Shown here: piece by piece, positions 8,803 to 45,153 of the stretch
Layout: each line of letters starts with the position of its first letter
Position numbering within the stretch: the stretch's first letter is position 1
Notes under the pieces: generated by a model
Told to the model about the DNA's origin: nothing
What the model saw: the letters and a program-made list of their open reading frames with translations, nothing else
Databases searched by the model: none
Translations under genes and position numbers: made by a program
Virus record (IMG/VR): IMGVR_UViG_3300016665_000612
Location: 1-49,174 of that record
Source: a virus
Taxonomy: Duplodnaviria; Caudoviricetes
Direction: 5' to 3' (one strand)
DNA length: 49,174 nucleotides

Positions 8803-9414
8803 ATGTGCATCATCGTTGTAAAGCCTGAATCCGTCGATCTTTCCATTGACACCATTGTGAACATGTGGATTCACAACCCGCATGGTGCAGGTTTCATGTA
8901 TGAGGACGACGGCAATCTCAAGATTGTCAAGGGCTTGATGAATATCAAGGATTTTTATGATGCTTATAGTTCCGTGCGAGATCGCAAGCTCGTGATCCAT
9001 TTTCGCATCCGAACTCACGGTGAAATCTCTCAAGAGCTCACACACCCGTTTCGCATTGACAGAAAGACGGGCATGGTTCACAATGGCATTCTGCCCATCA
9101 ACCCTCCCAAGGGAGAGAGTGACACCTCCTTTTTTGCTCGTCGCCTTCGGGAATCGAACCAGAACATCATGGGAGTGCTAGAGAGCCGCAAGGTGCGCCA
9201 GCGCATGATCAGTCGTATCGGCCGAAGCAAGATCGCCTTTATGAACAATGCTGGCAAGGTTCAAATTCTGAATGGGCACATGGGGCACATGGAGGCTGAC
9301 GGCTGTTGGTACTCAAACAACAGCTATAAGTCGCATGATGACTACAAGAAGCTGATTGCCCTTGACTATGATCCGAAAAACTGGTATGGCTCTTCCGAAA
9401 TGATCGTGATGTGA
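8803..9414 (+). CDS. class II glutamine amidotransferase (copy 1)
   Basis: N-terminal Cys (MCII), NPHGAG, HFRIRTHG, HPF, HNG, SDT; own leaderless sigma70 promoter. Confidence 0.9.
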   Translation: MCIIVVKPESVDLSIDTIVNMWIHNPHGAGFMYEDDGNLKIVKGLMNIKDFYDAYSSVRDRKLVIHFRIRTHGEISQELTHPFRIDRKTGMVHNGILPINPPKGESDTSFFARRLRESNQNIMGVLESRKVRQRMISRIGRSKIAFMNNAGKVQILNGHMGHMEADGCWYSNNSYKSHDDYKKLIALDYDPKNWYGSSEMIVM

Positions 9415-9493
9415 TTTTTTTTCTTGCCCCAAGTTGGCACTTGGGGTATAGTCTAAACATCAACTGACACCAACCAAGAAAACAGAAAAACAA

Positions 9494-10111
9494 ATGTGTA
9501 TCATCGTTGTCAAGCCTGCTCCGGTTCAATTTTCCATCAACACCCTGATGAATATGTGGGTAAACAATCCCCACGGGGCAGGTTTCATGTGCTCTGATGG
9601 TAACGAACTCACTGTTGTCAAGGGGCTGATGAACTTTGAGCACTTTCTTGGTGAGTATTACAAGCACGCCGCAAAGAAGATGGTGATGCACTTTCGTTGG
9701 CGCACTCATGGTCCCGTGCGCAAGACACTTACGCACCCGTTCAAGATCGCGGAGAATGTCGCTTTTGTCCACAACGGCATGATTCCTTGGGTCAAAGTCA
9801 AGGAAAATGAGAGCGATACTTCTGTCTATGCTGAGACGCTGGAACGGCGTTACACTGATGTTTTTGCTGCTCTGGAGCGTCCCCAAACCCGCAAGTTCAT
9901 TGTCGGAGAAATCGGCTTCAGTAAGCTGGCCTTTATGAACTCCGTGGGAACTGTCAAGATCCTAAACGGACAAATGGGGCACATGGGGGATAATGGCTGT
10001 TGGTATTCGAACCACAGCTATAAAAACTTCTTGTCGTATGACAAGAAGTATGGTAATGTGGACTACAATCGGAATCTTTGGATTCCGAGTGCAGACGTTC
10101 TGACTCTCTGA
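9494..10111 (+). CDS. class II glutamine amidotransferase (copy 2)
   Basis: MCII, NPHGAG, HFRWRTHG, HPF, HNG, SDT. Confidence 0.9.
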   Translation: MCIIVVKPAPVQFSINTLMNMWVNNPHGAGFMCSDGNELTVVKGLMNFEHFLGEYYKHAAKKMVMHFRWRTHGPVRKTLTHPFKIAENVAFVHNGMIPWVKVKENESDTSVYAETLERRYTDVFAALERPQTRKFIVGEIGFSKLAFMNSVGTVKILNGQMGHMGDNGCWYSNHSYKNFLSYDKKYGNVDYNRNLWIPSADVLTL

Positions 10112-10182
10112 TCTGCCTCGAAAATAGTTGTTGACTCCAATAGCGAAATAGTTTAGTATGGTTTCACTGAGTGGGTGAAACC

Positions 10183-10245
10183 ACAACCCTCAAGAAATAA
10201 GAAAGATAAGCAACAAATGTGTATCATCGCTCTCAAGCCCGAGAA
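10183..10245 (+). repeat. 63-bp direct repeat (copy 1; copy 2 at 11089..11151)
   Basis: Identical leader plus first ~10 codons of GATase copies 3 and 4. Confidence 0.85.
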
Positions 10246-10987
10246 CATTTCGATTTCCGACCAAACCATCAAGAACATGTGGGAGAACAATGATGATGGT
10301 GCAGGTTTCATGTACGCAGACCGTGGCAAGGTGCGAATCGTCAAAGGGCTGATGACTCTTGACTCGTTCATGGATGCTTACCGCCGTGTGGGCGATCACC
10401 GCAAGATTGTTATGCACTTCCGTATCCGAACTCATGGTGAGATCTCCCAGGAGCTTACGCACCCGTTTTGGATTCGTCAGGGCATCCTTGGCATGGTTCA
10501 CAACGGAGTGATCTCTTCGGTGGGTCACACTGGAAAGGCAAACGAAAGCGACACTTCGCTCTATGCGCGGAATCTTTCTAAGCGTTTTGTCAATCCGGTC
10601 AAGTCTCTCGAAAGCTCTGAGGTGCTTGAAAAGATCAAGTCTGAAATCGGCTATAGCAAGTTGGTTTTCTTGACAAATGACAATCGGCACATCATTGTCA
10701 ACGAAAAGCTCGGTGATTGGCATGATGGTTGCTGGTTCTCGAATGGCAGTCACAAAACCAACTATACTCGTTGGTCTTACAAGAATGCTTGGATGGCTGA
10801 GGATTATAGTGGTTACGAAGGGTATAAGCCCTACACCGCCAGCACAGGAACTTACAACCGTACAGCGGCCTTTACCCCCACGGCTGCTTCTGAGTCTCCT
10901 TTGGTCGTTGTGCCTGCTAGTGATGATGCTGAATGGGAAGCGTTGATCAATCGTTACGAGGCTCGTTACGGCTCGGTGCGAACCTGA
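10217..10987 (+). CDS. class II glutamine amidotransferase (copy 3)
   Basis: ATG 10217 gives MCII; NDDGAG, HFRIRTHG, HNG, SDT; C-terminal extension. Confidence 0.9.
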   Translation: MCIIALKPENISISDQTIKNMWENNDDGAGFMYADRGKVRIVKGLMTLDSFMDAYRRVGDHRKIVMHFRIRTHGEISQELTHPFWIRQGILGMVHNGVISSVGHTGKANESDTSLYARNLSKRFVNPVKSLESSEVLEKIKSEIGYSKLVFLTNDNRHIIVNEKLGDWHDGCWFSNGSHKTNYTRWSYKNAWMAEDYSGYEGYKPYTASTGTYNRTAAFTPTAASESPLVVVPASDDAEWEALINRYEARYGSVRT

Positions 10988-11122
10988 TAGTTTCAACTTC
11001 TGAACCCACTACGATTTTTCTTGTACCCAACAAGAAATGTGATATAGTGGGTTCAGAAGTAAGGAACAACCCCGAAACTCTCACCACTACAACCCTCAAG
11101 AAATAAGAAAGATAAGCAACAA

Positions 11123-11974
11123 ATGTGTATCATCGCTCTCAAGCCCGAGAAGGTTCAGTTTTCGCGTGCGCAGCTCAAGATTATGTGGGATAACAACCCT
11201 GACGGGGCTGGCTTCATGTACGCCGAGGACGGCGTTGTCAAGATTGTGAAGGGTCTTATGACGCTCGATGCGCTTGAGAATGCCATCAACGAGGTTGGTC
11301 CGCTGCGAAAGCTCGTGATTCACTTCCGCATTCGAACGCACGGGGCGATCTCCAAGGAGCTCACGCATCCGTTCTGGATCACTGAGAACTCGCTTGGGAT
11401 GGTTCACAACGGCGTGATTCGCAACCTTGTGAACCAGACTTCTGAGGCTGAGAGCGATACCGCCGTGTTCGCTCGTTCCTTCGCTGATGCATACGTTTCG
11501 CCCCTTCAGGCGATTCGCAACCCGTTTCACCGGGATATGCTGGAGGCTTACATCGGATTCAGCAAGATGGTTTTCCTTGACAGCAAGGGGCGCCACTACA
11601 TCCTGAATGAGTCGCTTGGCACTTGGGAGAACAATGTTTGGTACTCAAATGATCGGTTCAAGCCCGACCTCCCCCGCGTTTCAGGGAATACGCGAGTAAT
11701 CTACCCTGTTACTCAAGCCGCGAGTTATTCCAGGGAGCAGCGCCAGCTTGAACTTGAGCAAGCGTTCGATGGGCTTGAGTACAAGTCCCGCACCGACCGC
11801 TCTAGCGGCTCCCGTCGTGGCAACCGTTCTAGTGGGGTTGTGCATGTAAGCCGCGGCTCTGAGAACACCCGGCGTCGCCAGAAGGCGCTTCTGGGTTGCC
11901 CCACGACTCGACTCTCTGAGTCGTATTGGGATTCCCAGGACTTTCCCGGTGCGGAATACCCCGTCGAAGATTGA
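11123..11974 (+). CDS. class II glutamine amidotransferase (copy 4)
   Basis: MCII, NPDGAG, HFRIRTHG, HNG, SDT; Arg/Ser-rich C-terminal tail. Confidence 0.9.
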   Translation: MCIIALKPEKVQFSRAQLKIMWDNNPDGAGFMYAEDGVVKIVKGLMTLDALENAINEVGPLRKLVIHFRIRTHGAISKELTHPFWITENSLGMVHNGVIRNLVNQTSEAESDTAVFARSFADAYVSPLQAIRNPFHRDMLEAYIGFSKMVFLDSKGRHYILNESLGTWENNVWYSNDRFKPDLPRVSGNTRVIYPVTQAASYSREQRQLELEQAFDGLEYKSRTDRSSGSRRGNRSSGVVHVSRGSENTRRRQKALLGCPTTRLSESYWDSQDFPGAEYPVED

Positions 11975-22034: not shown

Positions 22035-22742
22035 GTGAAGATGTTTGATTGTGAAGGACTGAAGAAATCTCAAAATAGAGTTGGAGTTTACTGCATATTC
22101 AACACCAATAATGGTAGGCGATATGTTGGCAGCTCCAACAATCTTTGGCGTCGATTCACAGAACATCGTAGACATCTGAAAAAAGGCATTCACAGCAATC
22201 GTTTTTTGCAGAACGACCATGCTAAATCTGGCCCTGATGTCTTTATCTTCTTTATTATCCAAGAATGTTCAAAAGAAACTCGAATTGCCCAGGAGCAAAA
22301 GTGGTTAAATTCTGTATGGGATAATAAACAACTCTGTTACAACTTGGACTCTACTGCTGGAGCTCGTACTGGATGGATGCCATCAGAGGAGACTAAAGAG
22401 CGAATGAGTGCTGCGAAAAAAGGCAAACCTACTGGTCCATGTTCGGATACTCGCAGAGAAGCTATTCGGGAAGCAAAGCTTGGAAAATCGCATTTATTTA
22501 GTGTTGGTGGCAAACAGAAAATGGTGGAATCCAAGCAAAAGACCTATGATGTTCAATTGCTAGCGCCATCTGGTGTAGTGTATGGGCCGATTGTAAATCT
22601 TCATGCTTTCTGCCGAGAGCAAAGACTTGATAGGGCTAGTGTTCTTAGAGTAATCAAAGGGGTCCAAGGTCATGTAAATGGGTGGAGACTCATCTCTGAC
22701 AAATATGTTGGCGAGGATTACAAAACCAGAAAGAAAAAGTAA
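22035..22742 (+). CDS. GIY-YIG homing endonuclease (Seg-like, NUMOD3-type tail)
   Basis: GVYCIFN...YVGSS...RRF.EH; SEETKERMS repeat-like segment; HTH-like C-terminus. Confidence 0.9.
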   Translation: MKMFDCEGLKKSQNRVGVYCIFNTNNGRRYVGSSNNLWRRFTEHRRHLKKGIHSNRFLQNDHAKSGPDVFIFFIIQECSKETRIAQEQKWLNSVWDNKQLCYNLDSTAGARTGWMPSEETKERMSAAKKGKPTGPCSDTRREAIREAKLGKSHLFSVGGKQKMVESKQKTYDVQLLAPSGVVYGPIVNLHAFCREQRLDRASVLRVIKGVQGHVNGWRLISDKYVGEDYKTRKKK

Positions 22743-28506: not shown

Positions 28507-28584
28507 GCAGCGGTAGCCCAAGAGTAGAGGCAATTCCCAAAAATGGGGAATCAAGTGTTGGTTCGTATCCAACTCGCTGCACCA
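28507..28584 (+). tRNA. atypical tRNA with a non-canonical anticodon arm
   Basis: GCAGCGG/TCGCTGC-A-CCA; ATTCCC-AAAAATG-GGGAAT. Confidence 0.5.
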
Positions 28585-32269: not shown

Positions 32270-32341
32270 GGGTCCAAAGCTTTAATGGTGAAGCAACTGG
32301 CTCTTAACCAGAAGAACTCGGATCGTTACCGAGTGGACCCA
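32270..32341 (+). tRNA. tRNA-Lys(CTT)
   Basis: CTGG-CTCTTAA-CCAG; variant T-loop ATCGTTA. Confidence 0.8.
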
Positions 32342-32350
32342 CAACGTGAT

Positions 32351-34938: not shown

Positions 34939-35011
34939 GGGTCCGAAAGCTTTAGTGGATGAGCCTCGGTCTTTTAAACCGATGAAGAGGGATCGTTACC
35001 CTACGGACCCA
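34939..35011 (+). tRNA. tRNA-Lys(TTT)
   Basis: TCGGT-CTTTTAA-ACCGA; T-loop ATCGTTA. Confidence 0.8.
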
Positions 35012-35089
35012 CTAAGGGGCACAAAGTCAACTCCCCCATAAAACTGCGCACTTGACACATCGGAGAGACGGTGATAGTATAGTTTCAAT

Positions 35090-35161
35090 GGCTCTGAAGC
35101 TCAACGGTCGAGCGGCGGTTTGTTAAACCGATGGAAGTGGGTTCAACTCCCACCGGGGCCT
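35090..35161 (+). tRNA. tRNA-Asn(GTT)
   Basis: CGGT-TTGTTAA-ACCG. Confidence 0.8.
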
Positions 35162-35166
35162 CTAAT

Positions 35167-35254
35167 GAGTCGTGAGAGGCGGTGGTTCCGCACGGGGGCT
35201 CGTACATCCCCCAGCTCTTAGGAGTTTTAGGTTCGAATCCTTTCACACTCACCA
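35167..35254 (+). tRNA. atypical tRNA-Tyr(GTA)-like
   Basis: GGGGG-CTCGTACAT-CCCC (9-nt loop), long variable arm, T-arm, ACCA end. Confidence 0.45.
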
Positions 35255-35281
35255 ATCTCGATAACAAACAACAGGAATAAA

Positions 35282-35572
35282 ATGATCGCAGTTAAGTCGT
35301 TTGGTTTTGGCATCTATGCATACACCCTCTATCCTTTTGTGGAACTTGTCAAACAGTCCATGGGTAAAAACTGGCGAGGAATTGGCCCTCTTTTCTATCT
35401 CCTCTTTGCATGTGCAATGAACATTGCGCTTATGTTAAGCGGTGCCCTGACAGGATACGTTCTTGGAGAGAGCAAAATGGCTTATTGGGCGCTTGTTCCA
35501 GCGGTTGTGATTTCGCTCGCTTCTTCTCTGTTTGACTTCAAGATTGAAGTTGACACACCGGAAGAAGTCTGA
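35282..35572 (+). CDS. small membrane protein
   Basis: 2-3 hydrophobic segments; AGGA RBS. Confidence 0.65.
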   Translation: MIAVKSFGFGIYAYTLYPFVELVKQSMGKNWRGIGPLFYLLFACAMNIALMLSGALTGYVLGESKMAYWALVPAVVISLASSLFDFKIEVDTPEEV

Positions 35573-35612
35573 TAGTGTAAAGAAGTTGGTGAGACAACAA
35601 ACATCAACAAAT

Positions 35613-35685
35613 GGGCTTCTAGCTTAACGGTCAAAGCTCTCGCCTTTTAAGCGACAAGATCAGGGTTCGAATCCCTGGGGGCCTA
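35613..35685 (+). tRNA. tRNA-Lys(TTT)
   Basis: TCGC-CTTTTAA-GCGA; canonical T-arm. Confidence 0.85.
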
Positions 35686-35767
35686 CTAAAGACAGCCGGA
35701 TAGACGGCACATGGGTTCATAGCTCAACTGGCAGAGCATCATATTGATCTATCAACTACATATATAC

Positions 35768-36118
35768 ATGCAAAAATGTATTGAATGTGGCAAAGAATAT
35801 CAGTATGATAGAAAAAAGGGTCATCGTAAAAACTGGTGTAACAGTTGCATGGTCAACAAACGAAGAATGACCATAGACAAAAAGTGTTTGGAATACAAAG
35901 GTGGTAAATGTGAGTTGTGTGGGTATAGCAAATGCAAAAGGTCTTTGCAGTTTCATCACATAAAACCAGAAACAAAAACATTCCAAATATCTGGAAATTG
36001 GGGATTGAGTTGGGAAAAACTCAAAACAGAACTTGACAAATGCATACTAGTGTGTGCTAATTGTCACGGAGAAATACACGAGGGCTTGTGGCAGACTGGC
36101 AATGCAGCGGACTTTTAA
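35768..36118 (+). CDS. HNH endonuclease
   Basis: CELCGY...LQFHH..P..K...ELDKC.LVCANCHGEIH; stop TAA lies in the inner tRNA anticodon loop. Confidence 0.85.
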   Translation: MQKCIECGKEYQYDRKKGHRKNWCNSCMVNKRRMTIDKKCLEYKGGKCELCGYSKCKRSLQFHHIKPETKTFQISGNWGLSWEKLKTELDKCILVCANCHGEIHEGLWQTGNAADF

Positions 36119-36153
36119 TCCGAAAGATGATGGTTCAATTCCCTCCGAGCCCA
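36082..36153 (+). tRNA. tRNA-Lys(TTT), nested replacement copy
   Basis: GGGCTTG/CGAGCCC-A; CGGA-CTTTTAA-TCCG. Confidence 0.8.
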
Positions 36154-36280
36154 TTTTAAGCGGAAGCGTGGGGGATCGTTGCCCTCTGGACCTACCATTC
36201 AATCTTATATCAACAGAGGTGAGATAGTTGTGTACACACAACATGTAGGAAGTTGGATCGACTTTCTATAAACCTCCTAC

Positions 36281-36355
36281 GGTGCTGTAGCCCAACTGGT
36301 AGCAGGCAATGGTCTAAGAAGCCATTCAGTGCGAGTTCGAATCTCGCCAGCACCA
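36281..36355 (+). tRNA. tRNA-Leu(AAG), short variable loop
   Basis: ATGGT-CTAAGAA-GCCAT; A34; 5-nt variable loop. Confidence 0.8.
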
Positions 36356-36394
36356 CTTTTATGCCAGCGTGGCGAAATGGTAGACGCCGGAGAC

Positions 36395-36871
36395 TTACTT
36401 TTTCTTCTTGTTTCTACCACAATAAGTTGATGTTTGAGAATGACAATTAGGGCATAACAAACGCAGGTTACTTAAACTATTGTCGGTATTTTGACCATTG
36501 ATATGATCAAGATGCAATACAATTGGACCCCCTTGCCATGAAGAAAGTCCGCAAATAAAACAAGTATATGCAAAAATGCCTTCATCTATTAAACGTTTTT
36601 TAAGTCTATTAGATGATGTATAGCTTGCATCACCAGATAATATATCCGAAAGTTTAATATTACGATTCCAGTTATGTTTTTTGCCTTTAAGATGTCCTTG
36701 TCCCGTCCAATGTGTTGTGCTTATGGATAAGTTTTCTATGGCTTTTTTAATTGTTTTGTAATTTCCTCCTGCTGGTTTTAAACCAAGAACATTCAAAACG
36801 CCAGCAAGTGAATAACAACAAGAAACAGCAGAAATTAATTGTTTTGTTGTCCAGGTTTGTTTTTTAGGCAT
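36395..36871 (-). CDS. HNH endonuclease
   Basis: CFICG...LHLDHINGQNTDNSLSNLRLLCPNCHSQT; N-terminal HTH-like region. Confidence 0.9.
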   Translation of the reverse strand: MPKKQTWTTKQLISAVSCCYSLAGVLNVLGLKPAGGNYKTIKKAIENLSISTTHWTGQGHLKGKKHNWNRNIKLSDILSGDASYTSSNRLKKRLIDEGIFAYTCFICGLSSWQGGPIVLHLDHINGQNTDNSLSNLRLLCPNCHSQTSTYCGRNKKKK

Positions 36872-37000
36872 ACTTTATAGCAGAGTGTCATTTTTGACAT
36901 TACAAGTAAGTATGCCGTAAACGGTCACATAGCCCAATCGGCAGTAGGCAGGGAACTTAAAATTCCTAAAGTATGGGTTCGAATCCCATTGTGACTACAA
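36398..37000. mobile_element. HNH + replacement tRNA-Leu(TAA) cassette
   Basis: ~603-bp insert inside the anticodon, carrying an antisense HNH and an intact tRNA-Leu(TAA). Confidence 0.8.
36923..36997 (+). tRNA. tRNA-Leu(TAA), nested replacement copy, short variable loop
   Basis: GGTCACA/TGTGACT-A; GGGAA-CTTAAAA-TTCCT. Confidence 0.85.
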
Positions 37001-37087
37001 AAATCTCTTGACCCTTAGTGGTCGTATGGGTTCGACTCCCTTCGCTGGTACTGCTATAACAAAAAACCTTAACACAAATTAAGGAAA

Positions 37088-39008: not shown

Positions 39009-39094
39009 GGGTAAGTAACTCAACGGTAGAGTAAGAGCCGCACCCCAAAACAGGGTTAGAGTTCTTGATGCTGGTTCAATTCCAGCCTTACCCA
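39009..39094 (+). tRNA. tRNA-like RNA with a 22-nt structured anticodon loop
   Basis: Perfect acceptor, D and T arms; AGAGC-[CGC ACCC CAAAACA GGGT TAGA]-GTTCT. Confidence 0.6.
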
Positions 39095-43662: not shown

Positions 43663-43787
43663 AGAAACTGGTTGACAACGAAAGAAGAAAGCAGTAAGAT
43701 AGTTACAGATCAACGGTCCCATACACTAACGGTTTAGGTGACTACCCTCTCAAGGTGAAATGAAGGTTAGAGTGCATACTTAATTGC

Positions 43788-44207
43788 ATGAGATGCAACA
43801 AGTGTGATCAAGAGAAGTCTGAAACAGATTTTGCAGCTTCGAAAAAATACGGAAAACAACCTTGGTGTCGTCAATGCCAGAAGAAAAGTCACAAAGCATA
43901 CTACCAAAAGAACAAACAGCACTTCATCGAGTATAAAGAATCAGTCAAACGACAAAGGCAAAAACAGCTACTAACTTACATGCAGGAGCAAGGTTGTAAG
44001 GACTGTGGCATCAAAGACCCACTTGTTTTGGAATTTGATCACATTGATCCAGAAACAAAAATAGAAAGTGTTTGCAAACTGTTGCAAAAAGGCCGAAAAA
44101 TGGAAACGATTTTGGCAGAAGTGGCAAAATGTGAAGTGAGATGCTGTAACTGTCATCGTAGAAGAACCATCCAGCAATTTGGATGGTATCGTGCTCGCAT
44201 AGATTAA
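43788..44207 (+). CDS. HNH endonuclease
   Basis: N-terminal CxxC..CxxC; CKDCG...LEFDHIDP..K...EVAKCEVRCCNCH; last codons overlap the inner tRNA. Confidence 0.85.
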   Translation: MRCNKCDQEKSETDFAASKKYGKQPWCRQCQKKSHKAYYQKNKQHFIEYKESVKRQRQKQLLTYMQEQGCKDCGIKDPLVLEFDHIDPETKIESVCKLLQKGRKMETILAEVAKCEVRCCNCHRRRTIQQFGWYRARID

Positions 44208-44269
44208 CTGGCTAAATCACCTGATTCTCAATCAGGTAAGTCCGGGTTCGAGTCCCGGTGCGAGTGCCA
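44193..44269 (+). tRNA. tRNA-Glu(CTC), nested replacement copy
   Basis: GCTCGCA/TGCGAGT-G-CCA; CCTGA-TTCTCAA-TCAGG. Confidence 0.9.
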
Positions 44270-44343
44270 ACACTGGCGGGTTCAAATCCCCCTGGGATCA
44301 TATTATCGAGTTTTAGTGACTAACATAAAGCTCAAAAACTCAC

Positions 44344-44417: not shown

Positions 44418-44554
44418 CTATGATTGTCTGCATGTGATATCTTTGGGGTCACTGAGTTGGAAAGGCTTGGCAATCATTCCAAGGTCGCTGGAGGTAATAG
44501 CCAGTCACTCTACCCAAGAGGGGTGTAGCTCAGTCAGAGCGTGGAAACTTTCCC

Positions 44555-44577
44555 TTAACTTAACTTAACTTAACTTA
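44555..44577 (+). repeat. (TTAAC)x4 microsatellite
   Basis: TTAACTTAACTTAACTTAACTTA. Confidence 0.7.
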
Positions 44578-44644
44578 TCTTACCTTGTTTTGTGTTAGTT
44601 TAATATATCAGGTAACAGTCACAGGCGCCTGTGACATAGTTACC

Positions 44645-45151
44645 ATCCCCTTAACTCACCAGATTAGAGTGCCACGCTTCGAACGTGGAAAAAAAGTTCG
44701 AAACATCATAATTAGATGTGTGAATTTAACAAAAACGTGTTCTCGTTGCCATAACGAATTTGAACTAAGCAAGTTCGCTATTAATCGGACTCGTTCTGAC
44801 GGACTAAATTCTAATTGTAAGTTGTGTCAAAAAGAATACCATAAAAAGCATTACCAAAATAACAAGAATTATTATGTTCAAAAAGCTCGTTATCACACTT
44901 CAAAACTTGAACAGTGGGTGAGAGAATTTAAACAAAAACCTTGTGCAGATTGCGGAAAAGAATATCCGTATTATGTGATGCAATTTGATCATCTTTCAGA
45001 TAAAGAATTTGTGCTTGCTAAAGCAAGGCTCTTTAGCAAAAAGAAAATATTAGAAGAAATTCACAAATGTGAAGTGGTTTGCGCAAATTGTCATGCGGAA
45101 CGAACACATAAAAGACGCCAGATACAATAGGTTCGATTCCTATAGGGGATA
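44645..45151 (+). pseudogene. split tRNA-Arg(TCG): 5' part 44645..~44690, 3' part ~45127..45151
   Basis: ATCCCCT/AGGGGAT-A; CCACG-CTTCGAA-CGTGG; T-arm ATAGG-TTCGATT-CCTAT after the HNH. Confidence 0.8.
44720..45130 (+). CDS. HNH endonuclease inserted in the tRNA-Arg(TCG) variable loop
   Basis: CSRC...CKLC; CADCG...MQFDHL...EIHKCEVVCANCHAERT; GTG start inferred; stop TAG lies in the T-stem. Confidence 0.85.
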   Translation: MNLTKTCSRCHNEFELSKFAINRTRSDGLNSNCKLCQKEYHKKHYQNNKNYYVQKARYHTSKLEQWVREFKQKPCADCGKEYPYYVMQFDHLSDKEFVLAKARLFSKKKILEEIHKCEVVCANCHAERTHKRRQIQ

Positions 45152-45153
45152 CT

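Follow-up and report, generated by a model that had tools for sequence, protein, structure and literature searches.

In tRNA att-site integrative elements, in fungal mitochondrial endonucleases that carry part of a gene and in engineered cleave-and-rescue drives, the damage caused by the insertion is compensated by the carried sequence, with a hybrid gene being rebuilt from a fragment, or an integrase or Cas9 being used. Intronless homing, gene-splitting insertions and the processing of endonuclease transcripts have been described (PMC2988022), and HNH genes have been reported beside tRNA arrays (PMC6409571, PMC5966550, PMC8421152). The GIY-YIG endonuclease SegB of T4 and T6 is located between tRNA genes, recognises a T-loop motif and homes (PMC2330249, PMC13096335), cutting tRNA genes and carrying the flanking tRNAs along (PMC2330249, PMC13096335, PMC2988022). 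mobE in nrdA of Aeh1 and mobA in gene 60 of T4 are intronless HNH genes in a critical part of a host gene, of which the split protein halves reassemble without a replacement gene being carried (PMC2988022). In Lak megaphages a possible tRNA is nested in a phage tRNA-Thr(TGT) gene, with filled as well as empty alleles; this insert was read as an intron, and the three supplements gave no matches for HNH or homing (PMC6784885).

The locus described here (cassette 1) shares with SegB that an intronless nuclease gene lies in a phage tRNA cluster and is absent from close relatives, but its nuclease is of the HNH type and is located inside a tRNA gene instead of between intact ones, destroying that gene and carrying a full isoacceptor. 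With the HNH-bearing group I introns of Patescibacteria tRNA-Asn it shares the nuclease family, insertion in the anticodon arm and preservation of the host function; there, however, rescue occurs through self-splicing between exact exons, whereas cassette 1 provides a second gene, has lost target bases and has no ribozyme. Like mobE and mobA it is an intronless HNH gene in a critical part of its host gene, yet it brings a replacement, and unlike the att-site, fungal and cleave-and-rescue systems it carries a whole tRNA, identical to the interrupted gene at 49 of 76 positions (64%), while both dead halves remain. A nuclease-plus-replacement-tRNA insert was not found in the literature searched (most subscription papers lay outside the search). 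Al-Shayeb 2020 gave no matches for intron or homing, PMC7162821, PMC8393795 and PMC3706429 contributed nothing further, and no paper on Patescibacteria tRNA introns was found in the literature searched. By the tests run on its sequence, cassette 1 would behave like an intronless homing element and is neither a group I intron, nor a SegB-type intergenic gene, nor an att-site element.

The window, i.e. the whole stretch of DNA analysed, is one contig of 49,174 nt from a large bacterial phage, with 41 tRNA genes called by ARAGORN, all on the plus strand, and with genes matched by PHROG to two RNA ligases, IF-3, DHFR and a GIY-YIG-type homing endonuclease; the region is best represented in a freshwater metagenome run. 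The GIY-YIG gene (22035-22742) directly follows an RNA ligase gene and its last residues echo the ligase C-terminus (GEDYK...RK), and it is possibly another duplication-carrying insert. Elsewhere in the window, four tandem paralogous ORFs starting with MCII (8803-11974) were by eye taken to be amidotransferase-like. Many weak tRNA-like stretches occur between 26800 and 49170, and two tRNA calls are odd, namely a Phe(AAA) by ARAGORN (28507-28584) and an Rfam tRNA of 54 bits (39009-39094) that is called by ARAGORN only with an intron. Three tRNA-Lys genes or parts (34939-35012, 32270-32342 and 36154-36197) have a T-loop starting atypically with ATCG, not TTCR.

All parts of cassette 1 lie on the plus strand. 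The 5' part of the outer, broken tRNA-Lys(TTT) (35713..35738; acceptor 5' strand and D-arm, positions 1-26) is separated from its 3' part (36154..36197; anticodon loop from U33, T-arm, acceptor 3' strand and encoded CCA) by an insert of 415 nt (35739..36153), which consists of an AT-rich leader (35739..35767), an HNH endonuclease ORF of 116 aa (35768..36118) and a complete inner, replacement tRNA-Lys(TTT) (36082..36153), detected by both ARAGORN and Rfam (57.1 bits). The insert, of which the last letter is A, carries only the HNH gene and the tRNA (i.e. no integrase), and target bases were lost rather than duplicated. As the earlier note had described, the HNH ORF enters the inner tRNA and stops in its anticodon loop: the last 12 codons are tRNA-derived, the C-terminus GLWQTGNAADF being encoded by the inner tRNA 5' sequence, and the TAA stop (36116..36118) coincides with inner tRNA nucleotides 35-37, the third anticodon base plus the next two A. 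The inner tRNA has one T-stem mismatch, at 36131, which is private to the window genome (G in the other sequences discussed below, i.e. X3, X8 and L084). Two other intact tRNA-Lys(TTT) genes are present within 800 nt (35613..35686 and 34939..35012, both plus strand), because of which the replacement is redundant here. The nearest upstream sigma-70-like promoter match (35052..35080, plus strand, 10/12, a match to the consensus only) likely drives a polycistronic precursor, as far as the sequence can tell; within cassette 1, including the leader, the consensus scan gave no such match.

That the two outer parts belong together is indicated by their acceptor strands, which form 7/7 pairs, whereas a 7/7 partner is found at 137 of 49167 window positions (0.3%), and by a half-tRNA score of 21.0 for the 5' part, compared to at most 14.7 in 158 control windows. 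Further evidence is the empty allele, found in metagenome run X2; the window probably comes from a different study. It consists of one low-depth contig (7.19) in one run, 453 nt long, in which 35685-35738 is joined through GCCGCC to 36154-36546 with no other differences (flanks of 54 nt on the left and 393 nt on the right); three further X2 contigs show no differences over 34995-35602. The six letters form, together with the outer parts, a full normal tRNA-Lys(TTT) with CCA (ARAGORN 111.0). From the joint and the normal fold it follows that the outer parts are one gene, that the insert measures 415 nt and that 4-6 target bases were lost, which contradicts the alternative of two unrelated genes. 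The range arises because TC at 35739-40 can be assigned to either the outer gene or the insert: about 4 nt of the anticodon stem had been proposed to be absent, which holds if TC is counted as outer gene and becomes 6 otherwise. The stem site that had been reconstructed, TCCGC-CTTTTAA-GCGGA, was right at 5 of the 6 letters, stem position 27 being G and not T. Cassette 1 is, then, an optional insert with an empty allele in a near-identical phage.

The filled allele was also encountered in X3 and X8. In X8, an RNA library available as contigs only, the cassette (one contig) differs at 8 of 442 positions and has one added C after 36153, the flanking tRNAs differ at 4/77 and 8/84 with a changed order, and pair 31-39 of the outer tRNA is broken. 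A cassette closer in sequence than its neighbours, in a phage with a different gene order, would be in line with lateral spread. Directly upstream of the cassette, the sequences of X3 and X8 did not align to the window. X4 and X5 gave nothing on cassette 1, the searched runs (X2, X3, X4, X5 and X8) being 5 of 22 listed. Searched as exact patterns, neither the inner tRNA nor the 3' part of the outer one had a match in viral contigs or GTDB genomes, and cassette 1 was not found in any isolated phage searched. Scans for the empty anticodon arm returned 3 + 3 intact tRNA-Lys genes, the latter three without a blastn match to the window; being from unrelated phages, these were rejected as sister alleles and show just that the arm is a natural one.

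An insert of this kind could also be an intron that is removed from the RNA, either by self-splicing or by cutting and sealing with the phage's two RNA ligases, which would leave the outer tRNA alive. The two ligase genes in the window, the Lak phage tRNA 'introns', one of which has a possible tRNA (PMC6784885), and a score of 108.0 for a join of the outer parts that borrows four inner-tRNA bases are in line with this. However, Rfam gave no group I intron match (RF00028) across the window, the insert has no group I core motif, and ARAGORN in intron mode gives no call for the split outer tRNA-Lys. Plain excision yields scores of 96.4 or 86.6 and a wrong fold, against 111.0 for the real empty allele, with 4-6 bases gone, which bears out the earlier note in that simple splicing does not restore the gene. 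A protein-spliced intron of the archaeal or eukaryal type does not fit either, as removing it would have to leave complete exons. In addition, outer halves decay in relatives (the 3' part in L084, pair 31-39 in X8). Removal at the RNA level is therefore considered highly improbable.

The 116-aa protein, starting at ATG 35768, is assigned to PHROG 2255 (E 3e-27). An upstream TTG (35744) is also in an open frame, and homologs begin at the ATG. The Pfam HNH match (19.6 bits) is under its cut-off of 21.4, and Foldseek returned only weak HNH matches (best E 0.044), with no solved structure matched by sequence. In an alignment of 11 homologs, H63, H64, N98, H100, H104 and four CxxC pairs are invariant, and the structure model (mean pLDDT 88, with residues 112-116 below 50) contains the strand-strand-helix core. 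Judged from these features, the protein is an HNH nuclease with an intact motif, and its cutting is putative.

Three related proteins, P0001, P0002 and P0121 (97, 65 and 72% identical), share the tRNA-derived C-terminal tail of the window protein. The nuclease-tRNA junction is also identical in L084, the locus to which P0002 corresponds, with 69/72 identical positions in the inner tRNA compared to 210/316 in the nuclease core. Nuclease and inner tRNA are inherited together. In L084 the cassette is preceded by a 5' part of another tRNA-Lys type, i.e. that of the second intact window gene (361-385 of L084 versus window 34939-34963, 96%), and its outer 3' part has decayed beyond recognition. In a tree of the family the window protein belongs to an 8-row clade (95/94), in which 4 of the 4 rows with known context are directly upstream of tRNA-Lys(TTT), versus 1/60 others; this tree is a rough one (68 rows of which 11 were hand-picked, few columns, an unsettled bootstrap and kin that share labels).

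Surveyed were the 80 best loci of each collection (viral, metagenome and genome), in which a tRNA is present in 77, 71 and 17 loci, respectively. Most members of the nuclease family are free-standing between intact tRNAs. In 58/240 family loci, the nuclease interrupts a tRNA-Asn and a group I motif is present, so that the family targets tRNA genes; Rfam, run on 16 loci, found a group I intron in 7/7 suspected cases and in 0/9 others. These HNH-bearing introns (58 loci among L120-L243) are mostly from Patescibacteria-labelled genomes.

The nested build was searched for with a half-tRNA detector and an acceptor-pairing test (cross-locus background 586 of 26,222, i.e. 2.2%). It was detected in 3/240 loci of the nuclease family (L098 and L099, which are alike, and L103) and 3/80 loci of the cassette 2 family (L258, L295 and L303), amounting to 5 distinct loci among 320 relatives; L084 was missed because of its decayed 3' part. 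L258 is a Leu-TAA in a Leu-TAA with agreeing anticodons, and L295 is likely a Gln in a Gln with matching anticodons. L303 and L103, judged by eye, are plausible, while L098 is doubtful, its inner anticodon being GAT and its outer gene probably CAT, with no clear match. L043, L118 and L030 were rejected as 5' remnants, their tRNAs being intact or mis-called on inspection.

Some other arrangements were seen among the relatives. In L085-L089, L090/L004, L105 and L164, the nuclease and an intact tRNA are preceded by what is left of a decayed D-arm, 30-60 nt ahead of the nuclease start; these are possibly older cassettes with eroding outer halves. In L062, a tRNA-Asn 5' end is present on both sides of the HNH gene, one copy being degenerate and the other intact, suggestive of rescue by a duplicated 5' part instead of a whole tRNA. 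Base pairing is possible between the D-arm of the broken tRNA and the leaders of L094, L098 and L258 (p<=0.05 for 3/11 cases examined post hoc, versus 4/66 controls), possibly as an operator or translation hairpin; for window cassette 1, antisense pairing of leader and D-arm is not significant (p 0.082). L258 has an additional hairpin across its ribosome binding site.

The window itself contains two sister cassettes. In cassette 2 (36363..37051, plus strand), an outer tRNA-Leu(TAA) is split at 36396/37000 (clean join 115.8) by a minus-strand HNH gene (36395-36871; PHROG 10822) and an inner tRNA-Leu(TAA) on the plus strand (36923-36998); its empty state is an unbroken gene in L084, and X8 has a joint at the same place. 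The TAA stop of this HNH gene (36395-36397) comes from anticodon-loop letters of the outer tRNA-Leu 5' part. In cassette 3 (43715..44300, plus strand), an outer tRNA-Glu(CTC) is split at 43756/44274 (join 110.7), with a plus-strand HNH ORF (43788-44207) entering the inner tRNA-Glu(CTC) (44193-44269, plus strand). The empty allele in X2 has AGGCG where the window has 517 nt, and a search for relatives of this nuclease found none. Inner and outer anticodons agree in 3/3 cassettes of the window. A fourth split tRNA, Arg(TCG) (44645-45152), holds an HNH gene of PHROG 2255 near the variable loop/T-arm, without an inner tRNA (joins up to 114.1), and X8 has this Arg(TCG)-splitting HNH region with 3 differences in 508. 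Nearby, a short tandem repeat of CTTAA units (44553-44586) comes after a tRNA-like 5' start at 44520.

Cassette 1 has broken another tRNA-Lys(TTT) gene in its anticodon stem. Following these results, we consider it probable, with some room for doubt, that it is an intronless homing element which passes from phage to phage during co-infection, with putative cutting of the unbroken gene. Its source would have been a free-standing HNH gene with a tRNA-Lys gene immediately downstream, and this unit would have been taken up where another tRNA-Lys gene was broken, via non-homologous or micro-homology repair; the donor end and the replaced bases do have a short micro-homology. The nuclease would then cut the empty allele, while the filled allele would be immune through the splitting of its recognition site by the insert. 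The carried isoacceptor would make the damage tolerable, doing the same job as the self-splicing intron in relatives of this nuclease. The target needs a caveat, i.e. the intact tRNA-Lys at 35613 has the 13-nt anticodon core of the empty allele, so that the site would have to reach into the D- or T-arm, or self-cutting would have to be tolerated. A single strict site is doubtful as well, because the host genes in the window and L084 differ widely. The redundancy of the replacement, the private T-stem mismatch of the inner tRNA and the low number of nested loci among relatives also count against homing.

It could be argued instead that the cassette is a one-off recombination scar, with a SegB-like HNH-tRNA unit that landed once and was passively inherited or co-converted, its nuclease cutting elsewhere (e.g. 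at a general tRNA motif) and the insert site not being the homing site. SegB does cut at a distance from its own gene, at a T-loop motif that many tRNA genes have (PMC2330249), the majority of the family is free-standing between intact tRNAs, and the redundant tRNA-Lys genes remove the need for rescue. On the other hand, three independent anticodon-matched cassettes occur within a 9-kb stretch, intron-borne relatives are found exactly in tRNA anticodon loops, and in L084 the same unit has entered another type of tRNA-Lys at an identical arm junction, which supports homing. We therefore regard a single passive landing as unlikely, though still worth weighing.

The position of the insert end has suggested yet another origin, namely capture of the cassette from a processed mRNA-tRNA transcript, by which its ending at the inner tRNA 3' end would be explained. 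In cassettes 1, 2 and 3 and in L258, the insert does extend just 0-4 nt beyond the inner tRNA, but spacers of 14-17 nt are found in L103 and L098, the inner tRNA is upstream of the ORF in L295 and L303, and the ORF of cassette 2 is antisense. No CCA has been added, and the short micro-homology between donor end and replaced bases already accounts for cassette 1. Capture from RNA is thus hardly credible, and homing of a DNA unit stays the preferred reading.

Whether the overlap of ORF and inner tRNA has a function of its own is a separate matter. The earlier note had proposed that the overlap locks nuclease and antidote together and that tRNA maturation down-regulates the nuclease. The 5' maturation of tRNA is carried out by RNase P, and the corresponding cut, at 36082, would interrupt codon 105, H104 being the final residue that is invariant. 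With the inner tRNA starting from codon 105 and no internal promoter match, RNase P would leave a stop-less nuclease mRNA, likely a tmRNA substrate if this prediction from sequence holds. A selected lock and built-in off switch could draw on this cut point, on the lack of a promoter match within the cassette, on the identical 12-residue tRNA-derived tail in four proteins that are 65-97% identical, and on RNA processing having been proposed to lower segB and segG transcripts (PMC2988022). The tail, however, is conserved because it is tRNA sequence, and its end is disordered in the model. Moreover, among the 37 loci with a tRNA within 150 nt (from 234 loci with a full core, dereplicated to 80), ORFs enter the downstream tRNA in 17, compared to 17.0 expected from shuffled spacers, i.e. 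there is no excess. Of these 17, 13 are in the early-stop frame, i.e. the one running onto tRNA bases 8-10 (binomial p 3e-4, with cases that are not independent), and 9 of the 13 stop on TAG at these bases. The window ORF is in the same frame but has TGG at bases 8-10 and continues to the anticodon loop, and this TGG instead of the usual TAG is alone sufficient to explain the long read-through. In two members of the clade, L085 and L164, the ORF ends ahead of the tRNA, and in cassette 2 the ORF does not overlap the inner tRNA at all. From the family-typical frame and the TGG, the read-through is likely a by-product, and selection for the overlap seems improbable. What stands of the lock is that nuclease and tRNA travel together (same junction, four proteins 65-97% identical), not that it was selected or acts as a regulator, and the antidote role is weakened by the other intact tRNA-Lys(TTT) genes at 34939 and 35613.

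In a broader sense, phage tRNA clusters may host 'cut-and-replace' gene drives, in which at least two HNH families without an intron carry a whole, divergent isoacceptor, homing swaps the tRNA allele and, in cassettes like cassette 1, maturation strips the stop and limits the enzyme. We put this forward tentatively, as a generalisation that may well turn out not to hold. If it were true, repeated rounds would account for the orphan tRNA halves and the isoacceptor duplicates that jumbo phage clusters contain. Broken outer tRNA genes are overlooked by annotation tools, and for three cassettes of one phage the states before and after insertion are now known. Carrying a spare would be a third way for a homing nuclease to reside inside a needed gene, beside splicing and the reassembly of a split protein. 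It would also offer a way in which tRNAs turn over and isoacceptors become duplicated in the tRNA clusters of large phages, and it bears on the arms race with anticodon nucleases.
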